DNA of 63,806 nucleotides, filler included, from Reclinomonas americana ATCC 50394 (GCA_048213135.1; 6 parts of 5 records of this genome joined end to end with filler, not necessarily neighbours in it); one strand, 5' to 3'. Numbered from the whole stretch's first letter, positions 9,440-40,252 are shown. Translations and numbers: made by a program. The notes: generated by a model not told the origin, from the letters alone.

Positions 9440-10791
9440 AATTCTCGAGAAGCGTGAAAGGAAAGAAGGGGGGGCAAGAGGGGAGAAGGAGGGAAGCAAG
9501 AAGGAAGAGAGGGAGGGAAGAAAGAGGAGAGGAAGGGAAGACGGAGGAGAGGGAGGCAAGAAGGAAGAGAGGGAGGCCAGAAAGTCGAGAGAGAGGCAAG
9601 AAAGAAGAGAGGGAGGGTAGAAGGAAGAGAGAGAGAGAGGCAAGAAGGAAGAGAGGGAGGGAAGAAGGAGGAGAGGGAGGGAAGAAGGAGGAGAGGGAGG
9701 CAAGAGGGAAGAGAGATGCAAGAGAGATGCACGCGTGCACACATCTTTATTGCTAGAGATAGATCACGAAGAACAAGTCCACACACCTGCTGTGTGCACG
9801 GTGGGATGCGAGTGGGGAGCCGAGTGAGTGAGGTGACAGCCGGCAACGGGCGATGCATAGCACGTCTGCAATCGTCACGGAACAACAACGAGGAGCACGT
9901 GTTTCCAAGGTGTCTGCATGTCGCACTGTGAGCAAAGGAAAAGAGGAAGGAGAGAGATATCTGCTCCGTCTCAATGACGAACACACCGCTCAGCACCTGA
10001 TACCAACTCGTGTTCGGTCAGGGCAAGCCGAATGATGATTCTACATCCAGACGTCCAGCAAAGAGAGAGAGAAGAATCAGAATGTAGTCAACCACCCCAC
10101 ACACTTCGATGTCGGGATGCTCACCATGATGGACTGTCGAACGCGATGGCAGGACAGCAGTCGGTGCATCTCGAGCAGACCAGCATGCTCGGACTCAGCG
10201 CGTGTAGGAAGGATGGGGCACATGACTGGAGAATCAGATGAGCGCACAAAGGAGGGAGATGGTGGAGAAAGAGAGAGAGAGACTCTACAACGGACAGGGA
10301 AGGAGGGCTCGAGATCGGAATGACATGCATCCTGCAGAGCCAGAAGGAGAACATCACCGGCGCACATGCACAATGGGAAGCAGAGCAGTGGCGCCAACGT
10401 AGTATGCAAAATAATACGCGAGAAAACAATCACCGGCACTCTCTCTCCTGAGACACATACATGCACGATGAAAGATACGCACAACAGACATCACAACGAG
10501 ACAAAAAGACACAACAGCCTCCCAAGTGATTCATCGCACTTGCACACAAAATGGAGGTGAGAATGAGACACGCATCCAGAGAGAGAGAGAGATATCCTTC
10601 ACGCCCGCACTCACATTCACATGACAGCGGTGAGCAATTCATCATCATCAACAACGATCTCTCTGCTTTTCCTCTGTCTTCTCTCTTCCGCCATCCAGCA
10701 CTCGCATAACCACCCGCAACCCCGCACAAGACACGAAAACAACGCACAATCACCAGCAGCCACTCCCCCCCCCCCCCTCCGACTCACCAAC

Positions 10792-11895
10792 TCAGCACCG
10801 GAAAAGGACGACCTCGGCATCCTCGACAATGAAGCAGCGCAGAACCAGCTCGGCAAGACATCGTGAATCTGCTTCCTACTCGACTGCCCTCCTCTCCTCC
10901 AGCATTTCCTGCACAGCCTGCATGGCCGAGCGCGCAGCGTCGAGTTCGAGACAAGCAAGGCCACGCGGTGTGGACCACATTCGCACGCTATTGTCTTGGC
11001 CACCTGCACTCGCAATGTGGAGACCATCGGGAGAGACGGCCACAGACGACACCCACCCAGTGTGCCCCGCCAGCCGTCGCACTTCCTCTCCACTCTCCAG
11101 CGACCATACTCGCAAGGTGCTGTCTCCACTCCCACTCACGATATGCTGACAATCCNNNNNNNNNNNNNNNNNNNNTGTGTTGTCTCCACCCCCACTTACA
11201 ATGTACTGACTATCAGGGGTGACAGCGACTGACCAAACATATCCAGTGTGTCCTTCCAGCCGTCGCACCTCCTCCCCACTCGCCAGTGACCACACTCGTA
11301 CTGTGCAGTCCCAGCTCCCACTCACGATGTGATGACCATCTGGAGTAACAGCGACAAACCACACCTTAACATCGTGTCCCTCTAACCGTTGCACCTCCTC
11401 GCCACTCTCCAGCGACCACACACGCATGGTACAGTCTCCACCGCCACTCACAATGCGCTTTCCATCTGGGGTGACGGCGACACAATACACCCATCTAGTG
11501 TCTCTCTCTAGTCGTCGCACTTCTTCTCCGCTCGCCAGAGACCACAGTCGAACAGTGCTGTCCATGCACCCACCAACAATGTGCTGGCAATCGGGAGTGA
11601 CGGCGACGGACCTCACTGCAGCGGGACTCTGAATGATCTGTGTTGATCGCTTGAGGTGAGACGCACACGCACAGCAACGTTGGAAGACATGAACACACAA
11701 GCACACAAACAACAACCGCACGAATGCACAAACACAAGCACAAGAATGCACGCACAGACACCAACCACGCAAAAGTGCGCACACACTCACACCTTTGTTG
11801 TCATTCTCCGTGTGTGTGTGTGTGCGACTTGCTCGCTCGGGATTCTCACCGTTTCCCGCCTTTCTTCTCCCGCCTTGCTCTGAGACGTCGTCCAT
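10792..11895 (-). pseudogene. Array WD40 copy A with premature stop in the C-terminal tail (truncated allele or pseudogene)
   Basis: WD exon starts at 11637. An in-frame TAG at 10876-10878 precedes the otherwise intact DSRCLAELVLRCFIVEDAEVVLFRC. Repeat 2 has RD in place of GH. Small internal gap. Confidence 0.65.
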
Positions 11896-13861
11896 CGCTC
11901 GCCAGGCTGCAGCCAGCACCCCACCCACACAGCATTCGATGGCGTGAGCGACGAGGCTCCGACGGTGTGTGGGGTCCAAGACCGACATGGGACTCGTCGA
12001 TGAGAAATCGGCAATGGACAAGCAGGGTGGTGGTGGCACACGGTGGCGCACCACTCCGCTGCCCCATGCTGCTGTCCAGCAACACTCCCTTTCGACTGAC
12101 CAGCATTCTCTCTCAATGAGGACTGGAGCGCTGGGCTGCTTGGATACGCAGCTGTGGTCCTGTTGTGCTGCTGCCACGGCACACCCGAGAATTATCCAAT
12201 GAGCACCGAGTCATAGATACCTCACACCTCATTGGATCGGCCCACAGCGAGGCTGATTAGGGGCACACGAGGATGGAACAATGAAGAAGGAGAGTCAAAA
12301 GGAACAGGAGAGGAACGACCAGCACCGCCGCTCAGCGATGGAAGTGGCAGCTGTGTTGTGAGACTCGCCTCCTCACAAGCAATGCCTCCCGCCTTCAATC
12401 ACACTCACAGTCGGTCGGTACATTGACTCACGCAGGTACTAGTACTGTGAGGCACGGAACCACGTGTCTTCGCATATCAGTCACTTGCCAGCACGCCTGC
12501 GTTCAGATCACACACAGAATTGAGTCAGTCAATCTCCAAGTGTGGCCACCTTGTTCCTCAACACTGGTGTAGAACACGCACACACCATGTGTTGCTTGCC
12601 GAGCACGTCTCTGCAGTTTTCCATGACCACCACCATTGTCACTCGGCAGAGACGGCGGCAACCAAAGTGTGCACATCATCGATCTGCTCCGACATGCCAG
12701 CCGGGATTGAAACAAGCCACCAACCAGGCCACCATGTCGCACATCACGGCACACATGTGTACACCCACCCAGCCACGCTCTCCATAGCATGCACGGCCTG
12801 CACGAACGAGGTGAGCGGGAGGGAAGGAGGAAAAGAGAGATCAAGACGAGCAAGGCCACACACCTGCTTCGTGCAGGGAGGGATGCGAGTGTGGAGCCGA
12901 CTGAGTGAGGTGACAGCCGGTAACGGGCGATGCACAGCACGCCTGCAATCATTACGGAACAACGAGGGGGACCTGCCCCTAAGGTGCCTGCATGTCGGTG
13001 CGATGTGAGCAAAGGCATGGGAGATGAAGATATCTGCTCTGTCTCAACGACGAACACACCGATCAGCATCTGATACCAACACGCGGGATTGGTCAAGAGG
13101 CAAGGCGAGGGATGCTTCTGTACACACATCCATCCTGCAAAGGAGTGGGAGAGAAGAATCAGCATGTAGTCATGCCACCTCACACACTTCGGAGTCGGGA
13201 TGCTCACCATGATGGACTGCCCAAACGCGATGGCTGAATCGCAGCCGGCGCATCTTGGGCAGATACTCGGATCGACCTCGTGCGGGAAGGATGGGGTGGA
13301 TGACTGGGGAATCAGATGAGCGCACAAAGGCAGGGAGATGGCGGGGAAAGAGATAGACTCTGCAATAGGCAGGAAAAAGAGAGCGGAATGACATGCATCC
13401 TGCAGAGTCGGAGGAGAATGTCCGCGGCGCACAGGCACAATGGGAAGCAGAGCAGTGATGCCAAAGTGGTGTGCAAAAGAAGACGCGAGGAAATAGACAA
13501 CGGCGACTTGCTCTCCCGAGGCACACACATGCACGAATAAGATGCACGCACAACAGACATCACAACGAGGGGAAAAAGACGCAATAGACTCCCAAGTGCT
13601 TCATCTCGCTCGCACACACAAACTTGAGGTGAGAAAGAGACACGCATGCAGAGGGAAACGTGCTTCACGACCTCTCACTCACATTCACAAGACAAGGCAA
13701 CAAACACGAAGAGCAATTCTGCACCGTCAACAACGAGTTCTCTTACTGGCATTCTATTCCCCCACCTGCATCCCGCATGATCACCCGCACTCCCTCGCAC
13801 GACACGAAAACAACACACAATCACCAGCAGCCACCGCTCTCCCTCCCTTCGACTTACCGAC

Positions 13862-38724: not shown

Positions 38725-39043
38725 ACCACACTCGGACGGTACTGTCCATACATCCACCGACAATGTGTTTGCCGTCGGGAGTGACGGTGACTGACCGCAC
38801 CGAAGAAGCGAGACTCTGAATGATCTGTGCCGACCGTTCGCGGTGAGACGCACATGCACAAACACAAAGAACAACACCCGCACACAAACGAATGCATGTA
38901 CAGACACCAACCACGCAAAAGTGCGCATACATTCACACCTTTGTTGCCATTCTCCGTGCGTGTGTGTGTGTGTGATTTGCTCGCTCAGGGTTGTCACTGG
39001 TTCCCGCCTTTCTTCTCCCGCCTTGCTCTGAGACGTCGTTCAT
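38725..39043 (-). CDS. Array WD40 5' fragment (probably the start of copy J)
   Basis: Leader plus IIQSLASSVRSVTVTPDGKHIVGGCMDSTVRVW. Confidence 0.75.
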
Positions 39044-40252
39044 CCCTCGCCAGGCTACAGCCAGCACCTCACACAGCATACAGCAGTACTAGTATGAGAG
39101 CAATGTGGCTTCTTTGTGCGTGTGGGCTTTTGAAGACCGACATGGGACTCGTCGATGAGAAATCGACAGAATGGACACGCAGGCGGTACGGTGGTGACAC
39201 AAGGTGGCGCTCCACTGCACCGTGCATGTCCAGCGATCCTTCATTTCGACTGACCATCATTCTCTCTCAACGAGGACTGGAGCGCTGGGCTGCTTGGATG
39301 TGCAGTTGTGCACGTGCTGATGCCACAGCACAGCCGAGAAACATGGAGCACCGAGTCATCGAAACCTCACGCCTCCTTGGGTCGGCCCACAGCGAGGTTG
39401 ATGAGGGCACGATGATGGCACAAGGAACAGGAGAGGAGAGACCAGCACAGCAGCACACCAATGGACGAGGCAGCTGTGTTGTGAGACTCGCCTCCCTCTC
39501 ACCCAAGTCACAATCAACGTCTCGTGCCTTCAATCACACTCACATTCGGTCGGTGAATCGTCTCATGCATGAACTGTGAGGCACAGAACCACGTGTCTTC
39601 GCATGCCAGTGACGAGTCACTTGCCAGCACGCCTGTCACACAGAATTGAGTCAGTTAATCTCAAGTCTCGCCGACTTGCTCCTCAACGCACGTGTAGAAC
39701 ACACACGCACCGTATGTTGCTGGCCTCGCACGTGTCTGCAGTCTCCTGTGGCCACCACCATCATTACTTGGCGGCGACAGCAGCAACCAAGAAGTGCACA
39801 TCATCGATCCGCGCAGACCTGCCAGCCGGATTGAAAACGATCCACCGACCAGGCCATCCATCGCACATCACGGCACACATGTGTACACCCACCCAGCCAC
39901 ACACCTCATGGCGTGCACGGCCTGTACGAACGAATTGAGTGGGAGAGAAAGAGGAAAGAAAGATCACGCCGAACAGGGTCACACACCTGCTTCGTGCATT
40001 GGTGGGATTCAGCTGTGGAGCCGAGTGAGTGAGGTGACAGCCGGCAGCGGGCGATGCACAGCACGCCTGCAATCATTACGGAACAACGAGGGGGACCTGC
40101 CCCTAAGGTGCCTGCATGTCGGTACACTGTGAGCAAAAGAAATGAGGAAGGAGAGAGAAATCTGCTCTGTCTCATCTGATACCAACTCGTGTTTGGACAG
40201 AGGCAAGCCGAGGGATGCTTCTATACACAGAAACCATCTCGGCAAGGGAGAC

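Follow-up and report, generated by a model that had tools for sequence, protein, structure and literature searches.

We examined a family of WD40-repeat genes in a 63,806-base stretch of DNA from Reclinomonas americana ATCC 50394 (hereafter the window, meaning that whole stretch), in which variation between copies is concentrated at a few positions of an otherwise conserved propeller. The inventory was built from stop-to-stop frames and a hidden Markov model of the WD40 blade, with blades of at least 25 residues counted, and it comprises 41 blades, distributed over 12 pieces (A1, A2, D, E, F, G, H, I, J, K, K0 and L), plus the tail-only piece B. Blade 7, the C-terminal tail that follows it, or both are present on eight pieces (A, B, D, E, F, G, H and K), and J and C add unique 5' starts. 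Therefore, there are at least 10 genes (Table 1), which bears out the figure of at least 9 paralogues given in a preliminary description of this DNA. The same description counted seven repeats in each of D, E and G, in agreement with the frames, the blade model and the AlphaFold model of E, whose 28 strands make seven blades, and all of the variable strings that it quoted were found in the blades. D (340 amino acids), E (341) and G (326, cut by a linker) each carry their seven blades in a single open frame. Pfam recognized the WD40 repeat with E-values of 1e-64 to 6e-81, and PF00400 scored 212-264 bits against a cut-off of 27, in 6-7 stretches per protein. The entire 3.2-3.4 kb unit, beyond its coding part, recurs at 75-82% nucleotide identity; given this recurrence and the Pfam E-values, the repeat is not a product of chance.

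Outside its gaps the window has a G+C content of about 57% and numerous dinucleotide microsatellites, and N accounts for 9,089 bases in 29 runs (~14% of the window). Five identical joins of the form N44-TTAATTAATTAA-N44, which we take to be six-frame stop spacers for concatenating separately assembled pieces, split it into at least six pieces (1-18027, 18128-27514, 27615-40370, 40471-60910, 61011-62356 and 62457-63806), with the WD40 family spread over the first three. Because the window consists of concatenated pieces, adjacency across a join is no evidence of linkage or gene neighbourhood. Tandem order is real within single pieces only, as in the head-to-tail run F-E-D-C on the minus strand of the gap-free 9.4 kb piece 18128-27514, where F and C are partial. 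The single tandem array previously drawn from 9755 to 40250 therefore holds inside pieces such as this one, but as a whole it runs across three separately assembled pieces that were joined artificially. From 30 to 39 kb, short contigs lying between gaps scramble the orientation, and the 5' and 3' parts of gene K are kept apart by gaps and by fragment L.

Table 1. Genes and fragments of the WD40 family, the conserved non-coding element and the assembly joins, in coordinates of the window.
Feature	Position	Strand	Description
Gene A	10792..11804	-	Predicted exon 1 11793-11804 (MTTK), intron 11638-11792 (155 nt), exon 2 from 11637; 20-N gap 11156-11175
Gene B	13862..14045	-	End of blade 7 and tail with stop visible; remainder in gap 14046-14747
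Gene C	18128..18298	-	Predicted exon 1 (ATG at 18298), 117-nt intron, first bases of exon 2; cut by linker 18028-18127
Gene D, complete	20442..21584	-	Predicted exon 1 21573-21584 (MATK), intron 21456-21572 (117 nt), exon 2 20445-21455 plus stop; 7 blades and tail
Gene E, complete	23676..24830	-	Predicted exon 1 24819-24830 (MTTK), intron 24693-24818 (126 nt), exon 2 23679-24692 plus stop TGA; 7 blades, helix and tail
Gene F	27064..27514	-	End of blade 5, blades 6-7, tail with stop; 5' part cut by linker 27515-27614
Gene G	27615..28726	-	Predicted exon 1 28715-28726 (MATK), intron 28584-28714 (131 nt), exon 2 from 28583, 7 blades; last ~18 tail residues cut by linker
Gene H	31084..31401	+	Blade 7 and tail with stop, after gap 30499-31083
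Fragment I	32332..32532	-	About 1.6 blades between two gaps; nearest relative blade 5 of G
Gene J	33676..34312	+	Predicted exon 1 33676-33687 (MSTK), intron 33688-33808 (121 nt), exon 2 from 33809, blades 1-4, then gap
Gene K, possibly two genes	36566..38950	-	5' part: predicted exon 1 38939-38950 (MATK), 114-nt intron, blade 1 to 38725; 3' part 36569-37293: blades 4-7, tail, stop
Fragment L	38048..38175	+	Single blade on a 128-nt reversed contig between two gaps
132-nt element	25615..25932	-	Most conserved non-coding part of the unit; twice in tandem in unit E, copies in other units
Artificial joins (5)	18028-18127, 27515-27614, 40371-40470, 60911-61010, 62357-62456		Identical

The WD40 frame opens right after a stop or within an unconserved frame, and no ATG precedes residue 28. 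An alignment of seven upstream regions revealed the sequence ATG-(A/G/T)CA-AC(A/C)-AAG, followed by GTG(T/A) and with A at -3, in all seven units for which the 5' region is present, and an acceptor, (C/A)(G/A)CAG followed by ATC, in the same seven of seven. The introns so delimited are 114-155 nt long, their lengths fall in all three modulo-3 classes, and six of the seven contain in-frame stops on read-through. The introns of an ornithine aminotransferase gene in the same window match these splice sites, with donors in which G is followed by GTGTGT or GTGCGT, GT-rich intron starts and CAG acceptors. The genes probably have two exons, the first of four codons, and the predicted product consists of M-(T/A/S)-T-K and the exon 2 frame, about 344 residues in all. 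The propeller had been described as lying in one exon; all seven blades do share one open frame, but a predicted four-codon exon probably precedes it. No signal peptide was apparent at the predicted start on inspection by eye. Two upstream candidates for exon 1, the frames MMVMAMGDC... and MHETMHRPT, both ending in GTGAGT, were rejected, as their protein is poorly conserved in comparison with the ATG...AAG-GTG exon present in seven of seven units. Trans-splicing combined with a start at Met28 was also set aside, since purifying selection acts on residues 1-27, which form structural strands. Among the 27 inter-WD frames of units D and E, Pfam (E ≤ 0.001) found no NACHT, NB-ARC, HET or other domain, and the conserved ATG lies four codons before the propeller, in keeping with the earlier remark that no NACHT or NB-ARC domain is visible. 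A start codon, a donor and an acceptor, all conserved, speak for stand-alone genes, as had been proposed, and comparison of the units supports this reading well.

Copies of the 132-nt element in the non-coding part of the unit are 86-89% identical to each other, and conserved ATG...GTGAGT stretches come after it. Its tRNA-like look was not borne out by any Rfam or tRNA match; over the whole window, Rfam at gathering thresholds and ARAGORN each gave no match. A length-variable (CA)n microsatellite, at 24880-24835 on the minus strand and at equivalent places elsewhere, lies between an almost invariant 47-nt stretch and the predicted start codon in every unit, presumably in the 5' untranslated region or promoter.

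The AlphaFold2 model of E has a mean predicted local distance difference test score (pLDDT) of 90.6 and a predicted template modelling (pTM) score of 0.85. It is a closed propeller of four-stranded blades, and Foldseek matched it to seven-bladed propellers with TM scores of 0.95-0.97. In the model, an N-terminal velcro strand (residues 2-5) supplies the 28th strand, so that the propeller would begin at the extreme N-terminus; residues 294-314 form a helix, and confidence is low for the final 22 residues. Among solved structures, the model is matched best by highly repetitive propellers of prokaryotes, 5yzv (TM 0.97, 44% identity) and 2ymu (38%). Residues of the H-S-D-W tetrad are present in nearly every blade. 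By our own pairwise measure over blades 2-7, mean blade identity in amino acids is 0.66 in D, 0.70 in E and 0.71 in G, with a maximum of 0.79 for any pair, and nucleotide identity within a gene is 73-76%.

All visible copies share a consensus after blade 7, ...STPRGLARLELDAARSAM.AVQEMQE-acidic-DSRCLPELVLRCFIVEDAEVVLFRC, followed by a stop and broken by scattered substitutions, such as SSLRGLAGFEL in B. In an alignment of blade 7 plus tail, 38 of 95 positions are invariant. The region beyond the propeller comprises a constant alpha-helix and an orphan Cys/hydrophobic (Cys-rich) motif. An Atlas feature search with the tail returned no neighbour above 0.76. Relatives of similar length were generic WD40 proteins only, at most 59% identical, and a search for longer relatives with blade 7 plus tail gave one generic match among 60 candidates. 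When a profile of blade 7 plus tail was compared with 1.84 billion representatives, the 150 matches listed were long multi-repeat proteins, uninformative on tail-bearing relatives either way; the best stretches of these listed matches lie mostly within profile positions 1-57 (the blade), and one reaches 63. A metagenome contig scan with tail peptides produced 450 pattern matches, none of which was confirmed. A constant, selected and partly disordered tail on a variable binder looks like a shared docking or signalling motif, and it may serve as one.

Variation was mapped on a blade register of 42 residues (L1...G12 H13 ... V17 ... D35 ... W41 S42). Entropy is highest at positions 18 (3.27 bits), 34 (3.04), 16 (2.86), 36 (2.55) and 15 (2.49), lies between 1.5 and 1.9 bits at 11, 14, 27 and 33, and is at most 1.0 bit at the remaining 33 positions; the bottom-face loop 24-28, though exposed, is mostly below 1 bit. 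According to the part of Wu et al. 2012 (PMC3419727) drawn on here, the top-face hotspots of WD40 propellers are R1 in the motif (V/L/I)-R1-R2-(V/L/I), R1-2 two residues earlier and D-1 before the tetrad Asp, and R1-2, R1 and D-1 are residues 16, 18 and 34 in G-beta numbering. In our register, V17-x18-S19-V20 and x34-D35 set the three top entropies, at 18, 34 and 16, on R1, D-1 and R1-2, and the earlier suggestion that the variable sites are the known contact positions of the top face is thereby supported, as far as that rule is described there. Positions 15-16 precede strand A in the model of E, 18 is the second residue of strand A, and 34-36 form the B-C turn; the assignment to a face combines these modelled strand positions with the published hotspot rule, with no computed surface map. 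Trp, Tyr and Arg together account for 29% of the variable-site residues versus 11% in the scaffold, and blades 2-6 are the most variable.

The scaffold is under purifying selection: the ratio of nonsynonymous to synonymous divergence (dN/dS, or omega) is 0.14-0.17 over all blades, comparisons between D, E, G, A, J and K give 0.14-0.31, and the three frames of 326-341 codons stay open despite a dS of 0.4-0.6. The tail has a dN of 0.03-0.08 versus a dS of 0.18-0.53. We compared models M1a and M2a using our own codon likelihood of the Goldman-Yang type with F3x4 frequencies. With D, E and G on a star tree, for which no topology is needed, the likelihood-ratio statistic was 13.0 (p = 0.0015; omega2 12.9 at 4.4% of sites), and each of the five sites with a posterior above 0.8 falls on position 16 or 18. 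The value of 13.0 was not reached in any of 40 null simulations under the fitted M1a (maximum 6.1; 1/40 above 5.99). Eight paralogues gave a statistic of 35.1 (p = 2.4e-8; omega2 9.6 at 4% of sites), and the 15 sites with a posterior above 0.5 all fall at positions 14, 15, 16, 18, 34 or 36. Treating 40 blades as separate taxa on a maximum-likelihood tree with scaled branches, a design that tolerates whole-blade shuffling, gave 18.5 (p = 1e-4; omega2 2.2 at 9% of sites), with posteriors of 0.97 at position 15, 0.96 at 16, 1.00 at 18 and 0.80 at 34, and weak support for 36. In our reading, the hotspots outpace the scaffold roughly five- to tenfold, and their rate of change equals or somewhat exceeds the silent one. 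Positive selection on them is likely, though some doubt remains.

Divergence between paralogues is uneven along the gene. Nucleotide identity is 82-94% for blade 1, blade 7 and the tail (dS 0.11-0.71) and 74-81% for blades 2-6 (dS 0.44-0.94), the latter hardly above the 73-76% seen between blades of one gene. The nearest neighbours of internal blades are often in another gene or at another blade position. Loop strings recur out of register, TDTVR in blade 4 of G and blade 7 of H, and TARV in blade 4 of D and blade 5 of E. The tree of the paralogues comes close to a star (supports 42-82). These sequence patterns fit either of two accounts, in which internal blades may have been exchanged among copies, or an old blade diversity may have been kept while the rest of the unit was homogenised.

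Frozen-frame WD40 repeats with hypervariable contact residues are known mainly as the sensor ends of fungal and bacterial receptors that resemble NOD-like receptors (NLRs), in which an ATPase switch turns binding into cell death or signalling. The F-box and MATH-BTB ubiquitin-ligase adaptors of nematodes and plants are likewise expanded and positively selected, with many tandem paralogues that combine a constant docking part and a variable binding surface. The likeness of the present family to these adaptors is an analogy only; no F-box, BTB or SOCS box was found in the tail (Pfam, E up to 10). The preliminary description had instead pointed to the HNWD/NWD genes of Podospora anserina (HET-E, HET-D, HET-R), and the family does share with them, on the published accounts drawn on here in part, unusually alike 42-residue WD40 units. 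Four codons are under selection in the HET-E/HET-D family, in two pairs around purified codons (7 and 9 around 8; 25 and 27 around 26; Paoletti 2007, PMC1805685), and the same pair geometry, 18 residues apart, is found here in 16/18 around V17 and 34/36 around D35. The signal of positive selection at paired top-face codons is also present here, although position 36 is weak and the tree-free controls are weaker. Repeat exchange within and between members is described for HNWD genes, and there are signs of it here too; either account of the internal blades given above would resemble the described reshuffling.

However, HNWD proteins have a NACHT domain and a HET or other N-terminal domain, whereas none is present here and the predicted N-terminus runs from M-(T/A/S)-T-K straight into the velcro strand. 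Active HNWD alleles are described as having at least 10 repeats in variable number, and all three complete bodies here have exactly seven. HNWD blades are about 85-100% identical, an internal identity of ~85% being the criterion for fungal NLR repeats in the part of Dyrka et al. 2014 (PMC4986451) used here, compared with 66-71% in amino acids (73-76% in nucleotides) in this family. The pattern claimed earlier therefore stands for the few hypervariable sites and their geometry, but internal conservation is weaker than in HNWD genes. HNWD diversity resides in alleles, whereas here it is spread over tandem paralogues in a host that is no fungus as far as can be told, and the constant C-terminal helix and motif set the family further apart. 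As it misses four of the five features that define HNWD genes, the family is not an HNWD member. By analogy, it may work like an HNWD sensor domain, but in free-standing form, with a fixed number of seven blades, tandem paralogues and an orphan tail.

Among WD40 proteins in general, highly repetitive members have an internal identity of at least 0.7 and moderately repetitive ones 0.4 (Hu et al. 2017, PMC5587647, used here in part). Blade identities of 0.66, 0.70 and 0.71 straddle that cut-off, by a measure that does not reproduce the exact procedure of the paper. The highly or moderately repetitive WD40 proteins of prokaryotes and lower eukaryotes (solved examples are 5yzv, the WD40 domain of Thermomonospora PkwA, and 2ymu) come from single genes, which in most cases also carry kinase, STAND or other domains and frequently have 14 repeats; the present family differs in its stand-alone seven-bladed tandem paralogues and in the focus of variation between copies on the hotspots. 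The hotspot rule of PMC3419727, for its part, covers in the portion used here where partners bind, not diversified families.

We favour, with a probability of roughly 0.55, the reading that these genes form a lineage-specific panel of at least 10 small single-propeller binding proteins that differ in specificity on one frame. The family would have been amplified as head-to-tail copies of the 3.2-3.4 kb unit in a poorly sampled, intron-bearing eukaryote. Each gene would give rise to an intracellular protein of about 344 residues, a closed seven-bladed WD40 propeller with near-complete stabilizing tetrads, a constant alpha-helix and a constant Cys/hydrophobic motif. Scaffold and tail would be held by purifying selection, while the contact hotspots of blades 2-6 (R1-2, R1, D-1 and the neighbours 15 and 36) would differ between blades and between paralogues, changing at or above the silent rate. 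Genes would have duplicated, copies would have swapped internal blades and the top face would have been under positive selection, which together would account for the diversity, and each protein would dock onto a common partner through the shared tail. Beside the observed anatomy, site pattern and contrast in selection of the family, the two-exon model, the differences in binding and the docking by the tail are what the sequences suggest.

Several results weigh against this reading. The linkage of the three gene-bearing pieces is unproven, gene A has a premature stop, and hardly any variation is seen at the hotspots of blade 1 (R18, M34) or of blade 7 (mostly W16, Y34). The tail matches no known docking module: F-box, BTB and SOCS box were absent from five tails compared with Pfam at E-values up to 10, with one chance-level RRM match (E = 0.049). 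Tail-bearing relatives were not found in three wider searches, and the search of representatives was swamped by long repeat proteins. The codon models were implemented by ourselves, with naive rather than Bayes empirical Bayes posteriors, and the evident recombination inflates site-model tests. A tree-free check on 18 disjoint nearest-neighbour blade pairs, with a dN of 0.53 at positions 16, 18, 34 and 36 versus a scaffold dS of 0.32, gave an omega of 1.66 (bootstrap 95% 1.20-2.23), in which dS is biased downward because the same codons served to choose the pairs and to measure it. In 200 random half-splits, in which pair choice and dS drew on different codons, omega fell to 1.27 (5-95% range 0.91-1.68), and 15.5% of the splits gave a value of 1 or less. 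The all-against-all blade omega at the variable sites, 0.73-0.94, comes from a saturated comparison and was dropped as a measure of selection. The diversifying selection proposed earlier is supported by the rejection of the nearly neutral model in three designs, but omega is only ~1.3-1.7 in the tree-free control.

The half-split and all-against-all values would also suit neutral relaxation in an ordinary amplified family, with one shared conventional scaffold function, perhaps amplified for dosage, exposed loop residues free of constraint, and an omega above 1 produced by exchange or gene conversion that violates a single tree. The excess synonymous divergence of internal blades and their non-positional nearest neighbours speak for such recombination being real, and the near-star paralogue tree (supports 42-82) fits as well. 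However, M1a already contains a class with omega = 1 and was still rejected in all three designs, one of them topology-free and one with each blade as a lineage, and the null simulation was well behaved. Relaxation is further opposed by the confinement of variation to the three published hotspots (as described in PMC3419727) and their immediate neighbours, with other exposed loops such as 24-28 mostly below 1 bit, and by the enrichment of Trp, Tyr and Arg at the variable residues. We regard neutral relaxation as a serious contender, albeit an unlikely one. The propellers might, alternatively, be the sensor parts of larger NLR-like or multidomain genes whose other exons are hidden in gaps, lie elsewhere, or are joined by long-range or trans-splicing. 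Their closest relatives in sequence and structure are indeed WD40 domains of multidomain prokaryotic and fungal proteins, their open frame lacks an ATG of its own before residue 28, and ~14% of the window is N. Yet the gap-free 9.4 kb piece contains two complete units without any Pfam domain in 27 inter-WD frames; the start codon (with A at -3), donor and acceptor are conserved 114-155 nt upstream in seven of seven units; the modelled N-terminal strand closes the propeller; and a conserved stop ends every visible tail, all of which makes a multidomain origin very improbable. It is hardly credible that the array is decaying or an artefact, its copies being pseudogenes, alleles or wrongly assembled reads from one or two loci. 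The assembly is fragmentary, with reversed contigs of 128-200 nt and artificial joins, and gene A has both lost a GH (RD replaces it in blade 2) and acquired an 18-nt in-frame insertion in the acidic linker, which creates a premature TAG at about 10876-10878 (minus strand) just before the still-conserved tail; A is possibly a recent pseudogene, or the TAG a sequencing error. The copies are, however, ~19-25% apart in nucleotides, far beyond alleles or read errors, three frames of 326-341 codons are intact with a scaffold omega of 0.14-0.31, and four units follow one another in order on a gap-free piece.

Elsewhere the window carries ordinary eukaryotic genes, of which some have GT-AG introns. 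They encode a Peptidase_S74-domain protein, an N6-adenine methyltransferase (best match at most 54% identical, with matches scattered across many eukaryote groups), a GNAT acetyltransferase, a WDR41-like protein, ornithine aminotransferase (exons) and an actin-like fragment. An ornithine aminotransferase exon resembles the Toxoplasma entries no more closely than human, and a coccidian origin, which the style of the sequence had suggested, was therefore rejected. In the frame at 2-1697 (plus strand), by the piece that carries gene A, a 150-nt tandem repeat rich in Gly, Ser and Thr precedes a Peptidase_S74 (endosialidase chaperone) domain; such an arrangement, here on a eukaryotic scaffold, is more familiar from phage tail fibres. 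Two further propeller genes were noted. A divergent seven-bladed WD40 frame at 41135-42208 (plus strand), on the next assembled piece, is 48% identical to E; its blades 4-7 are like the family consensus and blades 1-3 are not, a hydrophobic end resembling a tail anchor replaces the family tail, and the genes of the array may have an older relative in it. The WDR41-like beta-propeller gene at 50197-52831 (plus strand), which a gap and probable introns interrupt, has no relation to the array family.

Finally, we consider what a panel of single-propeller binding proteins would mean. The receptor repertoire with an immune-like role that was first proposed for this locus may exist, in the form of an innate system that lacks a nucleotide-binding switch. 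Single-propeller sensors, encoded in the germline as a panel and acting inside the cell, would recognize foreign (pathogen, prey or non-self) proteins by top faces that blade exchange and positive selection have diversified, and all would report through the shared C-terminal helix and Cys-rich motif to one effector. We view this extension as decidedly doubtful; if it were true, the family would correspond, in a protist, to the sensor domains of NLRs, detached as genes of their own. In this family the sensor-type WD40 design takes the form of tandem free-standing single propellers with a private constant tail. If the copies bind different targets, sensor diversification can evolve and operate apart from the nucleotide-binding oligomerization domain (NOD) module, and the orphan tail would be a handle for finding the downstream partner. 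The family is in addition a compact natural series of stable seven-bladed scaffolds with varied binding faces, and even on a modest reading it is useful as a well-delimited case of repeat exchange and selection shaping a binding surface.

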